64,000 bases of DNA, from positions 288,001-352,000 of the forward strand of contig CAWGAA010000003.1 of assembly GCA_963820525.1 (NCBI GenBank). Reading direction: 5' to 3'. Position numbers and translations under genes: made by a program. Of the stretch, positions 40,818-48,170 are shown in pieces. Positions within the stretch are counted from its first letter, which is position 1. Each line of letters starts with the position of its first letter. Below the pieces are notes generated by a model. That model searched no databases. It was not told the DNA's origin and saw only the letters and a program-made list of their open reading frames with translations. Origin of the DNA: an uncultured Spirochaetota bacterium. GTDB taxonomy: Bacteria; Spirochaetota; Spirochaetia; SZUA-6; Fen-1364.

Positions 40818-41457
40818 CGGGGGAAGGGGTGAGTGAGAAATGAAGCTCTGGGCGTACCCCGCCCGAGGGGATTCACTCTCAACCGAGGCACCTGTTCCGT
40901 GGCAGCCCTCGGGCGGGTCGCGTGCTCCGCTACAAGTCCTCGGCGCAGTAGGAGATCCAGAGGAATGTCACACCCCGGTCGGCCTCGGTCGCTGTGATTG
41001 CGCGCCTCCGGGCTTTCCGCTGCGCCCGCTCACGCGGAGGTGACTGTACATGCCCTCTGCCTTCGGCTACTCGCGAAATCGAGGCGGAATCTGCTCGGCA
41101 CCCCCTGCCCGCACTGCCATCAAGCAGCCGTATATGCCTCCCGTTTTCTTGATGCATGCAGTCGGCATCAGCGGCAACTACCCTCCCCGCCGCAAAGCTG
41201 GCTTACGCCCAGCGGGGCACCAACACCCTCCAGCTTATCTTCCGCCTCCACTTCCCCGCCTTCGCCGAGCTCTATGAGCAGCGCTATGCAAAGGAGTCCG
41301 GCCAGTTCCGCCTACACCGCATCACCCGGGTGACAGAGAAGTTCCTCCGCTGCGGGGATTACTCCCATGGGGTCGCCCGTATCCAATGCACAAACCCCGA
41401 CTGCCGCCTCGAGCTGTTCCGCCCTTTCAGCTGTAAAGGATTTTACCTTTGCCCCTC

Positions 41458-41645
41458 TTCATATGATAACCAAACGAAAGGGTATGATGGAAAAGGCAGG
41501 GAAAGCTAAGTCCTACTCATGCTCTGCACTGGAGAAGCTGAGAGCACCCGTGCTTCCCTGCCTTCCTTCTGACCGCTTGTAGTGGGGTGGTTGTCCTCAT
41601 ATGAGGGGCGCGGCAGGAGGGCATTGTAATACCGGGAGGATCGTC
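41458..41645 (+). ncRNA. Candidate IS110 bridge/seek RNA (non-coding left end)
   Basis: Stem aaggcagggaaagc/gcttccctgcctt encloses target-like sequences; a second loop contains tagtggg and tcatatga, matching the element's own right and left ends. Confidence 0.65.
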
Positions 41646-42298
41646 ATGAAGCAGTTTGTCGGAATCGACATGGGATCGCAGAAGCATTCTGTTTGCATCC
41701 TCGATGAACAGAGCGAAAAGATCAAAGCCCTTGAGATCGGCAACACCCTCGAGCAATTTCGAATGCTTGAGCAATACCTCGACGGCAAAGAGGATGTGCG
41801 AGTGTGCTGCGAGGGAGTACATGGGCCCCTTCTGGGATATTTGAAAAGCCGCGGAGTACTGCTCTATCCCGTCAACCCTTTGAAGATCAAACGGTTTCGC
41901 GAGATTCGAGCTCTTTCGGGAGACAAGCACGACGCCTTGGATGCCCGCTGCCTGGCAGAGTACCTGCAGACCAATCACCAGCTGATGCGTCCATTCAGCC
42001 ACTACAGTGATGCTGTGGAGGAGTTGAACTTGCTGCGCATCTCCCATGATCGGGTGACCAAAGAGCACGCTCGCTATGCGAACAAGCTGATATTCCTTCT
42101 GCGTGAATACTTTACGCTGTATGAAGGGCTTTTCAGCACCGCAGTGCCGCAAATACTGCTGGATTTGATACTTGCCTACCCCACCTGGGGGAGCATCAAG
42201 GGCCTTCCAGAGCCCATCCTATATAAGAGGCTCTAACATAAAGACTGCTAGACTTTTTCTCAAAAACAAGGAATGATCCTCCCAACTGGGAGGAATAT

Positions 42299-43119
42299 GT
42301 GAAGCTCGAAAGTCTACTTCCCAACGAGCTATGGAAGGTAGTGCAGCCGTTGCTACCCCCGCCAAAACCAAGGCGGTTCAAGTTTCCCGGGAGAAAACCC
42401 ATGGATCCCCGAAAAATCCTCACGGGAATCTTATATGTTCTCAAGAGCGGCATTCCTTGGGAAATGCTGCCCCAAGAGTTAGGATTTGGTACAGGGATGA
42501 GCTGCTGGCGATACCTGCGCGCATGGCAAGAGCAGGGCGTCTGGCAACGCATCCATAAGGTGTTGCTATCCAAGCTGCGAGGAGCTGATAAGATCGATTT
42601 CTCTCGTGCTGTTGTTGATAGCTCATCTGTACGAGCCGTCTTGGGAGGGCCAAAACGGGGCCGAACCCGACAGATCGCAGGAAAAAGGGGACAAAACACC
42701 ATCTCATTACCGAAGCTCAGGGGATTCCCCTTGTGGTCTGTGTCACGGAGGCGAACAGACACGACGTGACTCAACTATTGCCTCTGCTTGATGCGATTCC
42801 CTCGATCGGAGGCAAAAGGGGTCGGCCCCTCAAAAAGCCAAAAACACTTCAAGGTGATTGTGGCTATGATTCTGATCCGCACCGACGTGAAATAAAGAAA
42901 CGCTGCATTGTCCCCCTTATCCGTAGGCGTAGAACTGCTCACGGCAGTGGACTTGGTAAGACACGTTGGGTGATCGAGCGCACCCATTCTTGGTTACATC
43001 AGAACAGGCGCCTGCGTGTTCGCTTCGAGAAACGAGCAGACATTCATGAAGCTTTTCTTGTTTTAGGGTGCATTATGATCTGTTGGTCTGCATTCACAAC
43101 ATGGAGCTCATTATGTTAG
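42299..43119 (+). CDS. IS5-family transposase, two overlapping ORFs (probable programmed frameshift)
   Basis: orfA LWKVVQPLLP...GILYVLKSGIPW...VDSSSVRA; orfB GPNPTDR..GTKHHLITEAQGIPL...GDCGYDS...RWVIERTHSW. Confidence 0.85.
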
Positions 43120-44861
43120 CCCGCATTTCTCACAAATGGATATGAAAAAGCCTTTCGCTCTGGTATAATTGCTTTGCAACAAACAAAATAAACCAGAACA
43201 GAAAGGCTATACGATGCAAACAGACTGTACACCATCCCTGTTTAGCTTTCAAGACCTTGGCAAGAAAAAGGTAGTCGGAAACTTCGACGGAGGCGCGATC
43301 AGTTCCGATGCCGGCGCTCTCATTCTTCGAGAGGTCGAACGCGCCACAGGCATCATCAAAGCATTCGCGGGCTGTTTCACAGACTATCGAGAGAAAGGCT
43401 ATATCGAGCATTCCATCGAGCAATTGATAAGCCAAAGGGTATTCGGCATTTGCCTGGGATACGAAGACCTCAACGATCACGACCAGCTGCGCAAAGATCC
43501 CGTTCTGGCTGCCGTTTGCGGGAAACTCGATGTCAACGGGGAAACGAGGAGGCAGAAACGGGACAGAGGCAAAGCCCTTGCCGGAAAAAGCACGCTGAAT
43601 CGGCTTGAGACCGCCGGCGGGGCAAGCCTCTCTACGCATCGATACAAGAAAATCACGGTGAACGAAACAATGGTTGGGATGTTCCTGGTGAACACATTCC
43701 TGGCCAGTTATGAGCAAGCTCCTGAAGAAATCGTGTTGGATCTGGATGCAACCGACGACCCTCTGCACGGCAATCAAGAGGGCAGGTTCTTTCATGGCTA
43801 TTATGATTGTTATTGCTACCTGCCGTTGTACATCTTCTGCGGGGATCATCTTTTATGTGCGAAGCTACGTCCCTCCAATATAGACGCATGTTCGGGTGCC
43901 GAGAAGGAGTTGGCGAGGATCGTTGCGCAGATCCGTGAGCGATGGCCGCAGGTACGTATTGTTGTGCGGGCCGACAGCGGGTTCTGCCGGGAAGCGATCA
44001 TGGTGTGGTGCGAGTCCAACGACGTGGATTTCCTGTTCGGAATCGCGAAAAACGCACGCCTCTTACGCAAGATCCGCAAGGAGCTTTCAGAAGCCCGTAG
44101 GCAGTATCTGTCCACTGGTGAGCCGTCGCGAAAGTACGCGGAGCTGATCTATCGGACGAAAAAGACATGGTCGAAAAGCAGACGTGTTGTCGCCAAGGCG
44201 GAGTATCTGCGCAAGGGAGAGAACCCTCGGTTTGTGGTGACTTCACTTATGCAGGACCGCTTCCCTGGCCAGCAGCTGTACGAGCAGCTCTATTGTGCTC
44301 GCGGAGACATGGAGAATCGTATCAAAGAACAGCAGCTTTACCTTTTTGCAGATCGAACCAGTTCCGCCACGATGAGGGCGAATCAGCTTCGGTTGTGGTT
44401 CTCCTCTGCGGCCTACGTAATCATGAGTGCCCTCAGAAGGACCGCTTTGAAGGGGACAGAGCTGGCCTCGGCACAGTGCGACACGATTCGTTTGAAGCTA
44501 TTGAAGATTGGCGCACAGGTGCGCGTCAGTGTGCGCCGGATCTATGTGAGCTTCGCAAGCGGTTATCCATATCAAGAGCTTTTCCGTCAGGTGATTCTGA
44601 GTATTCACGAACTCTCCCTTCAATCGGGTTAGCGTGTATTGAGCCTTGTCTTGAGTAGTTTATTGGGAGAAGACTGTCCTGAAGTCGCCGAATCTTCCCT
44701 TATGAGCTGTAAAGTGCGCTCAATCGGGCGATTGGACTGACTCGGGTCACGAAATCGATCTACGTGTAGGGGCTGACAGCAAGGAATAGACCGTTTTTCA
44801 AAGTTGAGCCCCGCCTCATGATGATCAGACTGCGCAGAGTGCCGTTTGTGAGAAATGCGGG
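43120..44861 (+). mobile_element. IS1380-family element
   Basis: Perfect 17-bp TIR cccgcatttctcacaaa / tttgtgagaaatgcggg; 4-bp TSD TTAG (43116-43119, 44862-44865). Confidence 0.93.
43169..44632 (+). CDS. IS1380 transposase
   Basis: FDGGAISSDAG, GYEDLNDH, LDLDATDDPLHG, RADSGF, YCARGDMENRIKE. Confidence 0.93.
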   Translation: MLCNKQNKPEQKGYTMQTDCTPSLFSFQDLGKKKVVGNFDGGAISSDAGALILREVERATGIIKAFAGCFTDYREKGYIEHSIEQLISQRVFGICLGYEDLNDHDQLRKDPVLAAVCGKLDVNGETRRQKRDRGKALAGKSTLNRLETAGGASLSTHRYKKITVNETMVGMFLVNTFLASYEQAPEEIVLDLDATDDPLHGNQEGRFFHGYYDCYCYLPLYIFCGDHLLCAKLRPSNIDACSGAEKELARIVAQIRERWPQVRIVVRADSGFCREAIMVWCESNDVDFLFGIAKNARLLRKIRKELSEARRQYLSTGEPSRKYAELIYRTKKTWSKSRRVVAKAEYLRKGENPRFVVTSLMQDRFPGQQLYEQLYCARGDMENRIKEQQLYLFADRTSSATMRANQLRLWFSSAAYVIMSALRRTALKGTELASAQCDTIRLKLLKIGAQVRVSVRRIYVSFASGYPYQELFRQVILSIHELSLQSG

Positions 44862-45583
44862 TTAGAGCCTATAAGTTTTTTATCTACCACAACTACCGAC
44901 GCACAAGGTCCATCGCCCGGATCCTCACGCGGATTTATTCCTACGATCAGCTGCTGAGCAGCGAGGTGCAGCTGGTGTTGGCAGGGGAAGCGCAGATGGT
45001 CGCCCATATCCTGCAGGTTCTCAACGAGCGGCTGAAGCAGCTGGAGGCACGCATGAAGGAGATCATGCTCACACATCCGTTGGGACCCGTATTCGATTCC
45101 ATTCCCGGAGCGGGTAAGGTACTGGCGGGAAAGCTCATGGCACTTTTTGGGGATGACAAAGATCGGTTTGTCAAGGCAGGGGAGATCCAGGCGTTGTTCG
45201 GCACCGCACCGGTGAACTTCCAGACCGGCAATTACCACAAGGTGCATATGCGCAGAGGATGCAATCGAGAAGCGCGGGCCACGTTGTATTATTTCTCTTT
45301 CTGTTCGATGCGCTACTGCAGCTGGGCGCGAGCCTACTATGACCGACAAAGAGCGCATGGGAAAACACATGCGGTATCTGTTCGGGCACTTTCAAACAAG
45401 TGGATCAAGATCCTGTTCCAGTTGTGGAAACACGAACTGGAGTTCCCCCGATTTCGTGGACACCCTGAATTGCACCTGCGTCTCGGTTTCGGGGGGGGTA
45501 TCCAAACACCACCTGCCTTCCGAAAACGCAACCACGGCCCTCTACGCGCAAGGCTTTTTCCTCACTCTGGCTTGGATCGTCAA

Positions 45584-46453
45584 TCATGCCGTCTTCCGCT
45601 CCTCGAGCTCCTCATATTCGGTCGGTGTGAGGTAGCCGAGGTACGAGTGAAGCCGCTTGCGATTATAGAAGATCTCCACGTATTCGAATATTGCTCTCCT
45701 GGCCTCCTCTCTGCTTCGGTAGATCTTGTCCCGAATCAACTCTGCTCTCAAGGTCTTGAAAAACGTCTCCGCGCACGCGTTGTCCCAACAGTCGCCCTTA
45801 CGGCTCATGCTTTGAATGAATCCGTGCCCTTTGGCAAACTTTTCAAACTGACCGCTGGTATACTGCACACCGCGATCGGAATGAAACATCAGTCCCCGCG
45901 ACGGGCGGCGACGAATCGCGGCCATGACTACCGCCGCCAGCACCAGCTCGGCGCTCAGCTCGCAGCTCAGCGACCAGCCCACCACTCGACGGGAGTACAG
46001 GTCCAGCACGATACAGAGATACATCCACCCTTCGGCTGTCGCAACGTAGGTTATGTCGGACACCCACACGCGATTCGCCGCGGAGGCTTCGAAGTTCCTG
46101 TTCACTATGTTTTCGGCCACTTCCTGGCCGTCTTTCGAGTGCGTGGTCACTACAAACCGCCTCTTCGGCTGCGGCCCAAGGGCATTCTCTCTCATGATTC
46201 GGGCAACTCGGTTCTTCCCCACATGCCGCCCACGCCTCAGCAGTTCTTCCCGCATGCGCGGGCTTCCGTAGCTGTGACGCACCTCGCCCTGGATCTTCCG
46301 GATCTGCTCGACCAGCTCCTTCTCCTCAACTGCTCGTGCACTCTCTCCACCGTCGAGCCAGGCATAGTACCCACTGCGCGCTACTCCCAATACTTCCGCC
46401 ATCTTCTCCACGCCGTGGGTTCCCCGCTGTTTACTCATGATCTGGTACTTCAT
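45584..46453 (-). CDS. IS3 transposase OrfB (DDE integrase core)
   Basis: WVSDITY, HSDRGVQY, GDCWDNACAETFF, YNRKRLHS. Confidence 0.93.
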   Translation of the reverse strand: MKYQIMSKQRGTHGVEKMAEVLGVARSGYYAWLDGGESARAVEEKELVEQIRKIQGEVRHSYGSPRMREELLRRGRHVGKNRVARIMRENALGPQPKRRFVVTTHSKDGQEVAENIVNRNFEASAANRVWVSDITYVATAEGWMYLCIVLDLYSRRVVGWSLSCELSAELVLAAVVMAAIRRRPSRGLMFHSDRGVQYTSGQFEKFAKGHGFIQSMSRKGDCWDNACAETFFKTLRAELIRDKIYRSREEARRAIFEYVEIFYNRKRLHSYLGYLTPTEYEELEERKTA

Positions 46454-46740
46454 CTCGGGGGTCTGGAGAAGATGGCTGTTGCTTTTCTTAGGATGTCCCG
46501 TTCCTCACGCAACTCCTTGACCTCTTTGCGCAAGGCCGCCAATTCCTCGTCACGGGACCTGCCGTTGCCTGGGAAAGCTCGTGTCCCGTCCTCACTGAAT
46601 TGCTTCCTCCAGCGGTAGATCTGTCCGCTGCCGATTCCCAGATCCCGTTCAATCTCATGTCCCGGCTTTGTCCCTGACTCCAGGAGCCGGATAGCATCGA
46701 GCTTGAACTCTTTGGTGTATTTCTTCCTCGTATCTGCCAT
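46450..46740 (-). CDS. IS3 transposase OrfA (HTH)
   Basis: RKKYTKEFKLDAIRL...QIYRWRKQ...LREERDILRKATAIF. Confidence 0.92.
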   Translation of the reverse strand: MADTRKKYTKEFKLDAIRLLESGTKPGHEIERDLGIGSGQIYRWRKQFSEDGTRAFPGNGRSRDEELAALRKEVKELREERDILRKATAIFSRPPR

Positions 46741-48170
46741 TATCTTTCCTTACCCCTCTAAAATACTGCTTAACCATGTGTCTATGAAATCGGGGTAGGT
46801 CCAAACAGCCCTACGATGAAAAGAGGTGCAATGCCGAAATCTCAATGAACGTTGCTTGACATAGTGGGCGTGCTCCCAGAAGCGCACCCTCCTGTTCGCC
46901 GAATACCTCGACCAGCAGCTCCTGCTCACCCTTCCCCATCGACAATTCGTGTTCTCTATCCCAAAGGCGCTCCGCGTTTTCTTCCGCCATGACCAGCGTC
47001 TGTTCTCCGATGTCTCATCTCTCATCTTTGCCCTGATCTCGGAGTTCTACCGGGCATCGGCAAGATCAACCATAAGGAGCGCGGCGGTCGTGGCTTTTCA
47101 ACCCTTCGGGGACATGCTGCGAGCCAACTCCCATTGGCATGCCCTGATTCTGGAAGGAGGGTTCGCCCCTGAGGGGCAGTTCGTATTCCTCCCAATCCAT
47201 AATACACAGAAACTCACCGAGTGCTTCCGCCGACGGGCCATCGCGATGTTCCTCGACAAGGGTCTCATCGCCGAAAGCTTCGCAGAAATGCTTTTACGCT
47301 GGAAACACTCCGGCTTCAGTGTGGACAACACTGTTCGGATTGCAGGCGACGATCACAAAGCACGAGTTTCGCTGGCGCAGTATATCGCCCGTGCCCCTCT
47401 GTCCCTGGAGAAGCTGCGCTATGATCCCCTCGGCGAGAAGGCCGTCTACCACTCCACCTTTAACCCCTACCTCGGAGAGAACTTAAAGGTCTGGGATGCG
47501 CTGGACTTTCTCGCCCTTGCAACCTCTTTCATTCCGCCCCATGGCGTGCGTCTCATCCGCTACTTCGGATTGTATTCCTCGCGCAGTCGCTGGAAATGGC
47601 CCCTCTGGAAACACGTGGCAGCTCATGCTCCACGGGGATGGAAGAAGATTCACGAACGAGACAGCGCGGAGCCAGAACCCAAGGCGCCCACTTGCACCCT
47701 CCGTGAATCTGCCTCACGTTCCGCATGGGCGCGACTGATAGCCAAAGTATACGAGGTCGATCCTCTGGTCTGTGCTTGGTGCGGATCGCAGATGCGGGTA
47801 CTCGCCGTGATCACCCATGCGGCGGAGGTGAAGAAGATCCTGCGCCATTTGATTAAGATTGGCCGCCCTCCGCCCGGCCTGGACCCCTCGGCGTTGAACT
47901 GATTCTTCGCAGCCCAACTCACATCGTCGGCCCTAGTACAAGGAGAGGGAGATCCTTGATCTCGGTCTTCAGTACGAGGCCGATTCGCTACTATCGAGAG
48001 TGTCTTTCACCTCGGGTGCCGCTGGATTTCCTGGGCGGGCTCGCGCTTTGCGCAGCCTACTTCGACTGCCGAATGTATTGCGTGCACCACAAGGGCATCG
48101 CAACCAGCAGGAATTCGACTTACTGGATCTAATGGGGAAAATGGAAAAACGTCGTTTTGCCTATCATCTA

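Follow-up and report, generated by a model that had tools for sequence, protein, structure and literature searches.

Elements of the IS1111 group encode their RNA downstream of the transposase gene and, as Siddiquee et al. reportedly described in 2024, this seekRNA carries both target and donor guides. In Escherichia coli, IS621 consists of a recombinase and a 177-nt bridge RNA, two further bases of which are described as taking the part of handshake guides once the strands have been exchanged (Durrant et al., 2024, PMC11208160; Hiraizumi et al., 2024, PMC11208158).

A preliminary description of the DNA analysed here, a stretch of 64 kb referred to as the window, had proposed that the leader of an IS110-family transposase gene is a bridge RNA, located at the left end of the element, in which one loop binds the target and another the donor. 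This proposal was supported by a match to an RNA family, by covariation of the helices, and by covariation of the loops with flanks and element ends; every motif listed in that description was found again at its position. Positions from about 41475 to 41625 very probably encode the bridge RNA, of IS621 type, of an IS110-group insertion sequence that targets IS91 genes.

Layout of the element and its nested insertions

The view that an IS110 element had been inserted in another transposase gene was borne out by domain matches: pieces with PF01548 and PF02371 domains were found between the two halves of an IS91-family gene (Table 1). In the 5' part of that gene the reading frame is broken after ...CKGFYLCPS, where uninterrupted paralogues read CPSCSQKR. 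The element starts with TTCATATGATAACC at 41458 and the start codon ATG of its transposase is at 41646, giving a leader of 188 nt, as had been reported. The first core base is not fixed, and 41458 T>C was found in metagenome contigs X3, X4, and X8.

The IS5-like element nested in the transposase gene is bounded by a 5-bp duplication (ATAAG, at 42223-27 and 44871-75). The remaining parts of the IS110 element (41460-42227, 44876-45437, and 46807-46869) add up to 1393 bp, and with one 2-nt core to the 1395 bp given in the preliminary description; once the nested elements are taken out, the ORF has 399 codons. One wetland metagenome contig containing an uninterrupted element joins 42221 to 44870 and 45434 to 46804, and a predicted protein, P0151 (89% identical), is continuous across both insertion points. 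The reconstruction of the 1395-bp element was therefore borne out. The window copy is inactive and cannot move by itself, its transposase gene having been split by two later IS insertions; its RNA gene is intact.

The region 42228-46803 is part of a pile of five elements: an IS91 gene that holds the IS110 element, which holds the IS5-like element, which in turn holds a PF13701 element, plus the IS3 element. At least four further copies of the PF13701 element (>99% identical) and at least three of the IS3 element were found in the genome. At the left end of the PF13701 element, Rfam gave a weak match to Ms_IGR-7 (43129-43214, minus strand; 25.7 bits against a gathering score of 45, E 0.057), which was taken as chance.

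Table 1. Features of the IS110-family element, its leader RNA, its nested insertions, and the interrupted IS91-family gene (window coordinates).
Feature	Position	Strand	Basis or remark
IS91-family transposase gene, 5' part (zinc-binding domain)	41156..41457	+	Pfam PF14319 (Zn_Tnp_IS91), E 4.5e-06
Left target (LT) GCCCCTC	41451-41457	+	Last 7 nt of IS91-family 5' part
IS110-family element	41458-46871	+	Leader 41458-41645 is its left end
Left core copy, 2 nt	41458..41459	+	TT here; CT in second genomic copy and three metagenome contigs
Left end (right donor, RD)	41460..41492	+	Candidate -10 boxes TATGAT 41462-41467 and TAACCA 41467-41472
Target-binding domain	41493..41564	+	Alignment, covariation, covariance model
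Outer stem, target-binding domain	41493-41506 / 41552-41564	+	Complementary, one bulged A
Loop 1, 5' side	41507-41520	+	Contains left target guide, candidates 41510-41518 or 41512-41520
Left-guide register 1, GUCCUACUC	41510-18		Family alignment; against GCCCCTC-YT 5/8 (positions 1-8), 7/8 with rU-dG wobble
Left-guide register 2, CCUACUCAU	41512-20		Adjoins inner hairpin; against GCCCCTC-YT 5/9 plus one wobble
Left-guide register 3, GUCCU^UCAU	41510-14 + 41517-20		Covariance model, AC 41515-16 as insertion; 8/9 including two wobbles
Inner hairpin	41521-41538	+	
Right target guide UGAGAGC	41539-41545	+	Followed by core-binding AC 41546-41547
CCGU	41548-41551	+	At the place of a handshake guide
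Donor-binding domain	41565..41620	+	Stem 41565-41576 / 41610-41620
Left donor guide UAGUGGG	41580-41586	+	
Right donor guide UCAUAUGA	41597-41604	+	
GGGG	41605-41608	+	Pairing extends into target side of left junction
Transposase ORF piece 1, 194 codons, DEDD/RuvC-like domain	41646..42227	+	PF01548, E 1.1e-27
IS5-like element (DUF4096 + DDE_Tnp_1), nested	42228..44870	+	Inverted repeats AGGCTCTAAC/GTTAGAGCCT
Multicopy PF13701 (DDE_Tnp_1_4) element inside IS5-like element	43117 to about 44861		Domain match
Transposase ORF piece 2, Transposase_20 domain	44876..45437	+	PF02371, E 5.4e-14
IS3-family element (HTH_Tnp_1 + rve), nested	45438..46803	-	3-bp duplication AAC at 45435-37 and 46804-06
Transposase ORF piece 3 and right end	46807..46869	+	Stop TGA 46857-46859 inside TTGACA
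-35 candidates	TTGCTT 46852-46857; TTGACA 46856-46861	+	Right end
Left donor (LD) TAGTGGGC	46862-46869	+	Element right end
Right core copy GT	46870..46871	+	Compared with empty and filled sites
Right target (RT) GCTCCCAG	46872-46879	+	First bases of IS91-family 3' part
IS91-family transposase gene, 3' part (Y2_Tnp)	about 46872..47902	+	PF04986, E 1.1e-12

The leader RNA family and its donor-binding loop

Relatives of the element were collected by an alignment-based scan, to which genome bins, most of them Spirochaetota, contributed 24 loci and metagenomes 80. The loop-2 frame (CTTCTGACTGC...GCAGCAGAAG) recurs in the leaders of 57 of these 104 loci, 56 of which had enough upstream sequence to be parsed. 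With 56 related leaders in public genome bins and metagenomes, and the mechanism already published, the earlier designation of the lineage as unexplored was an overstatement. A leader alignment was made of 36 distinct relatives and the window sequence; the relatives were drawn from 41 distinct leaders, leaving out L011, L044, and L087 (long inner-hairpin insertions) and L016, L032, and L072 (near-duplicates) and adding L009. In these 37 sequences three helices covary according to RNAalifold and a helix count: 94.5% of the cells are paired, and both-side changes occur in 13 of the 24 pairs (93 cells), a figure that none of 500 shuffles reached. Controls in which the helices were slid were 36-65% paired.

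Modelling the leader across homologues, a check proposed in the preliminary description, yielded one RNA family with covarying helices and shared loops. The covariance model, built from the 36 relatives with the window sequence excluded, gave a single match in the 64 kb, at 41491-41621 on the plus strand (61 bits, E 2.7e-12), which spans the full model. Run on the whole genome to which the window belongs, it gave two matches, the window copy and a second, partial copy. Single-sequence folding of the leader was no better than that of shuffles (z -1.16 and -1.12), and an Rfam scan of 41000-47400 (E <= 1) gave no match in the leader (41458-41645) and only two weak ones, both in nested elements.

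Loop 2 had been said to contain copies of both ends of the element, and this was confirmed. The donor guide tagtggg is identical over 7 nt to the right end (46862-46868), and the donor guide tcatatga matches the left end (41459-41466) over 8 nt, also exactly. TAGTGGG and TCATATGA each occur at only two places in the window, the element end and loop 2, the expected counts being 2.9 and 0.39, respectively. The count of TAGTGGG itself is not unusual; its placement is, at the terminus of the element and at a column that holds the same motif in at least 50 related leaders. In nearly all relatives one copy of TAGTGGG precedes the start codon by about 67 nt and a second is in the right end, behind TTGACA. 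The run GGGG that follows the right donor guide pairs into the target side of the left junction, with C, C, and, by wobble, T.

Among the relatives, loop 2 covaries with the element ends in the sense that it is mostly conserved and that its rare changes have their mirror in the ends. In L059, guide and right end both read TAGGGAG, and TCATAT goes with AUAUGA, like in the window element; L018 has TAGTAGG, and L024 TAGTGGT, in both guide and end. The mirroring is broken in two relatives, L042, with guide GAG against end GGG, and L065, with the reverse; the mismatch of L065 could be tolerable through a G-T wobble. The near-invariance of the donor motifs in the family, which makes the signal mostly one of conservation and not of covariation, together with the unremarkable folding of the single sequence, would suit a leader that is an ordinary 5' untranslated region with end repeats serving as protein-binding sites of the transposase instead of RNA guides. 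We regard this explanation as very unlikely, since the helices covary, the rare end changes of L059, L018, and L024 reappear in loop 2, and loop 1 varies freely and tracks the flanks of each insertion, as DNA-binding sites inside an element would not do.

In the RNAalifold structure (41577-41609; columns 99-129 of alignment A4) the two donor guides are paired with each other, UUAUA with UAUAA, and the window sequence CCUCAUAUGAGG is a 12-nt palindrome in the loop 2 region. This guide-to-guide pairing might reflect a loop 2 closed on itself, or might follow from ends that are nearly palindromic.

Target-binding loop and insertion sites

The preliminary description had proposed that guide-target covariation be examined over other insertion sites. 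Guides were scored at fixed alignment columns against the flanks of their own element and against those of other elements, 53 of the 57 loci being mappable to a row of the alignment; this procedure replaced a free-offset scoring, whose background was inflated. In the relatives, the left guide had a cognate mean of 6.52/8 against 4.61 for non-cognate pairs (n = 27 distinct pairs), and the right guide one of 4.14/7 against 2.46 (n = 29 distinct pairs). These cognate means were reached in 0 of 5000 permutations on either side, and loop 1 of the bridge RNA thus covaries with the flanks. Wobble pairs are common: counting them raised the left-guide cognate mean of the relatives from 6.52 to 7.15.

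At the family columns, the right target guide of the window element pairs at 6/7 positions with GCTCCCA, a score equalled by 1 of 788 non-cognate pairs, and 9/10 positions are paired when the core GT and one further base are counted. The motif gagcac (41542-41547), previously read as the reverse complement of the right target flank, belongs to this guide (UGAGAGC-AC, 41539-41547) in the register homologous to that of the relatives. The left target guide pairs at 5/8 positions, or 7/8 with wobble, values reached by 55% and 24% of non-cognate pairs, respectively. None of its three registers (Table 1) exceeds the non-cognate background; the true left guide is within 41510-41520, matches the target only moderately, and is ambiguous.

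As to the motif ctcatgctc (41516-41524), which had been put forward as a match to the rebuilt target ctc|gtgctc, its presence and its 8/9 identity stand. It straddles the crossover, however, and is not the canonical left target guide, because half of it forms the 5' strand of the inner hairpin (41521-38). The motif was probably mis-registered, and its match is taken to be largely fortuitous. The rebuilt target also needs a correction that leaves the 8/9 figure unchanged: by comparison with paralogues, its g is the element-side core base and not an original base of the target.

The 8/9 match was picked from many possible alignments, and TAGTGGG is no commoner in the window than in shuffles, two points that would agree with loop, end, and target matches that are mere coincidence in the window element. 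We consider such coincidence extremely improbable: the motifs fall at the guide columns of 36 relatives, TCATATGA has two occurrences (the end and loop 2) against its low expectation, and the score of the right guide is so rarely equalled by non-cognate pairs.

A bridge RNA could also choose its target mainly through the right guide, the core, and a few proximal bases of the left target, in a half-match-like or mismatch-tolerant manner, in which case some sequence other than the IS91 site would be the one best spelled by loop 1. This variant seems possible to us, though on the unlikely side. It would fit the contrast between the right guide (6/7, or 9/10 with the core) and a left guide at background level, and also the flank of a further copy (L083-86), which fits the left guide worse still (only 4-5/8 paired) even though that copy has the same left guide; half-match insertion by IS621 has moreover been published (10.64898/2026.08.31.748434). 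It is opposed by the 8/9 pairing of the left guide once rU-dG wobble and a 2-nt bulge (41515-16, placed by the covariance model) are allowed, by the frequency of wobble in cognate pairs of the relatives, and by the finding of all the insertions at one site.

That site is known from further copies of the element. The second genomic copy is rearranged: its left end plus 369 bp (C1:1286547-1286915, minus strand) is 99% identical to the window copy, and its right end is at C1:1111557-1111623 (plus strand). Metagenome loci L083-L086 represent one further copy, 92-96% identical. In the window, C1, and L083-86 copies, the same Cys-Pro-Ser-Cys codons of IS91-family genes are interrupted. The IS91 flanks of the other copies are diverged paralogues, with 63% and 49% amino-acid identity to the gene in the window, against 99% nucleotide identity between elements; these are therefore separate insertions, at least three in number. 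Loose contig ends in runs X7 and X8 also have IS91-type flanks, X7 providing a further flank. No empty CPxC site in the same genome came up under a strict pattern, and tblastn detected five uninterrupted IS91 paralogues in it, with CCCTC[C/T]TG[C/T]TC[C/G]CAG coding for Cys-Pro-Ser-Cys-Ser-Gln.

Some details of these copies were also recorded. The left part of the second genomic copy ends at window-equivalent 41826, against an IS3 end, and its right-end remnant comprises 64 nt, lies 175 kb away on the other strand, has unique DNA before it, and starts within one base of the position of IS3 in the window copy; this suggests an IS3-mediated rearrangement or descent from an IS3-bearing form. The L083-L086 copy (e.g., L085:1827-2188) has a 172-nt internal deletion (window-equivalent 41602-41773) that took away the start codon and the last part of loop 2; its leader has a single change, 41540 G>A, which falls in the right target guide. 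A degraded IS91 paralogue at C2:24120-24764 reads CPSSQKR, the Cys codon missing exactly at the IS110 insertion point, which could be chance decay or an excision scar.

The core dinucleotide is TT or CT at the left junction, GT at the right junction, and CT or TT in the empty paralogues. Only one core base is shared, T if the register is read as in IS621 or C if it is moved by one, and the crossover can be placed only to +/-1 nt. The GT of the element is fitted by the core bases AC of the right target guide, and the C of the target by the G after the right donor guide. A multicopy relative (TCCCCCATGAATGGGAG; L020-L023, L033-L041), in which nine empty sites fix the flank ends, likewise has AT at the left against GT at the right. 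A 2-nt target duplication was considered and rejected, there being no room for it in the IS91 reading frame or in the empty paralogues.

Relatives L010-L104 show two classes of left junction, even among identical RNAs: the guide-matching flank adjoins TTATAT either directly or with one extra base (G, A, T, or C) in between. The best left register splits 13 to 14 among the 27 cognate pairs. A further observation concerns the two target guides of the relatives, which share sequence in the same sense, at a mean of 4.1/7 columns against 1.4-2.2 at other offsets (columns 29-35 against 61-67 of alignment A4). Since guides share sequence and the flanks of the relatives are hairpin repeats, the sites at which the relatives aim are palindromic and REP-like. 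On these columns the guides of the window element share 3/7, and no palindrome was seen in the IS91 target.

Proposed mechanism, recombinase, and comparison with known systems

Since UAGUGGG (41580-86) has the sequence of the right end, it would base-pair to the bottom strand at that end, and UCAUAUGA (41597-604) would pair with the left end TCATATGA. The RNA would bring the element, in circularised form, together with the target for the DEDD/Tnp recombinase, with crossover at the 2-nt core and insertion into the Cys-Pro-Ser-Cys codons of IS91-family transposase genes; the GGGG after the right donor guide may act like the handshake bases of IS621. Transcription, the circle, catalysis, and the strand logic are what we infer from IS621 (PMC11208160, PMC11208158).

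A junction promoter was scored in silico by joining the right end, one core, and the left end. The preliminary description had placed candidate boxes in the two ends, and these are present, with 16 bp between TTGCTT and TATGAT across a junction with one core copy; the candidate promoter itself is weak here. The window element has 8/12 consensus positions, by way of either TTGACA-17-TAACCA or TTGCTT-16-TATGAT, TAACCA (41467-41472) being at the position homologous to the -10 box of the relatives. In the relatives, at least 9/12 positions agree with the consensus in 25 of 26 cases, and 11/12 in 17 of 26 (TTGACA-17-TATACT or TATTAT). A junction promoter weaker than those of the relatives is thus plausible for the window element. 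None of the 20 runs listed for the sequence is an RNA run.

The PF01548 match of the transposase spans positions 1-154 of the 155 of the profile, and D8, E56, D96, and D99 are invariant among seven aligned sequences. The C-terminal piece aligns with IS621 chain 8wt6_A (E 9.5e-10). The codon ACC at 45224-45226 (Thr), in the motif FQTGNY, is opposite the Ser of the IS621 motif Y-E-S-G, a residue (number 243 in 8wt6_A) that is taken to be the catalytic Ser241 of IS621. Among closer relatives, Ser was found in all 44 in which the motif could be located (it was not found in 12 of 56), and among distant IS110-family representatives Thr was found in 9 of 72 (7 by pattern and 2 mis-split by the pattern). 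Decay of a dead copy was considered as the origin of the Thr and rejected, since P0151, which is uninterrupted, has the same Thr, as do those 9 distant representatives. Thr at the nucleophile position is thus a trait of the lineage, and one that is probably tolerated. A literature search on IS110 and the catalytic serine, confined to one library, found no mention of threonine. A protein search of 40 related genomes gave no close kin, only distant IS110 proteins at 26-28% identity, and a single-protein scan of genome contigs gave 123 pattern matches and no relatives; the nearest representative in a library of 1.8 billion proteins is 45% identical.

Beyond the bridge RNA itself, the sublineage of this element may be an active natural bridge variant that combines a Thr nucleophile, retargeting from REP-like hairpins to IS91 zinc-finger codons, and guides tuned to unequal cores, a combination that we put forward tentatively and hold to be doubtful. 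If it were true, the retargeted element would be a guided disabler of a rival mobile element, and guides for unequal cores (target YT, donor GT), the right target guide suiting the donor core and the right donor guide the target core, would correspond to the state after exchange and bias the reaction towards insertion. If borne out, Thr at the nucleophile position and guides fitting unequal donor and target cores could be of use in engineering. No new mechanism is involved; this is one more example of the system described in 2024. What the locus adds to the known IS110 systems is a well-delimited family of bridge RNAs, comprising 56 related leaders, the ends that go with them, and numerous natural target sites, together with a worked natural example of retargeting within this family, where a coding motif of another transposase has taken the place of hairpin repeats. 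For genome annotation, a pile of five IS elements and two disrupted IS91 genes are explained.

The relatives (loci L009-L105, from Spirochaetota bins and metagenomes) are close to the window element, with transposases 35-49% identical to its own, the same three helices, the same loop-2 layout, and one covariance model for all. They also have the right end TTGACATAGTGGG with the stop codon inside TTGACA. They differ from it in aiming at palindromic REP-like sites, whereas the window element is at a non-palindromic coding site; in their left end, TTATAT against TCATAT in the window element, which has the matching guide change, as L059 does; and in having Ser, not Thr, at the nucleophile position.

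With IS621 the window element shares an RNA encoded in the left end, upstream of a DEDD and Tnp recombinase, and two internal loops in which the 5' side reads in the same sense as the left half of the DNA together with the core and the 3' side is complementary to the core and right half. Both have additional bases that follow the right guides on the 3' side, where the handshake guides lie, a -35 box in the right end and a -10 box in the left end (candidate boxes in the window element), and no target duplication beyond the core. The likeness of the two RNAs is one of architecture. The core of IS621 is a shared CT, whereas the window element has YT at the left and GT at the right with one base in common; IS621 has a catalytic Ser where the window element has Thr; and IS621 targets a REP sequence, the window element a coding motif of another IS. 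Two further departures are the fit of the right target guide to the donor core and the weakness of the candidate junction promoter. The N-terminal piece of the transposase did not match IS621 at E 0.01 and matched only ISCro4 (E 6.7e-4). With the ISCro4 transposase (PDB 9t56), compared on the protein alone, both ORF pieces match (E 2.2e-09 and 6.7e-04). Elements of the IS1111 group have the same transposase family and an RNA with target and donor guides, encoded downstream of the transposase gene; the RNA in the window is upstream of it, as in the IS110 group.
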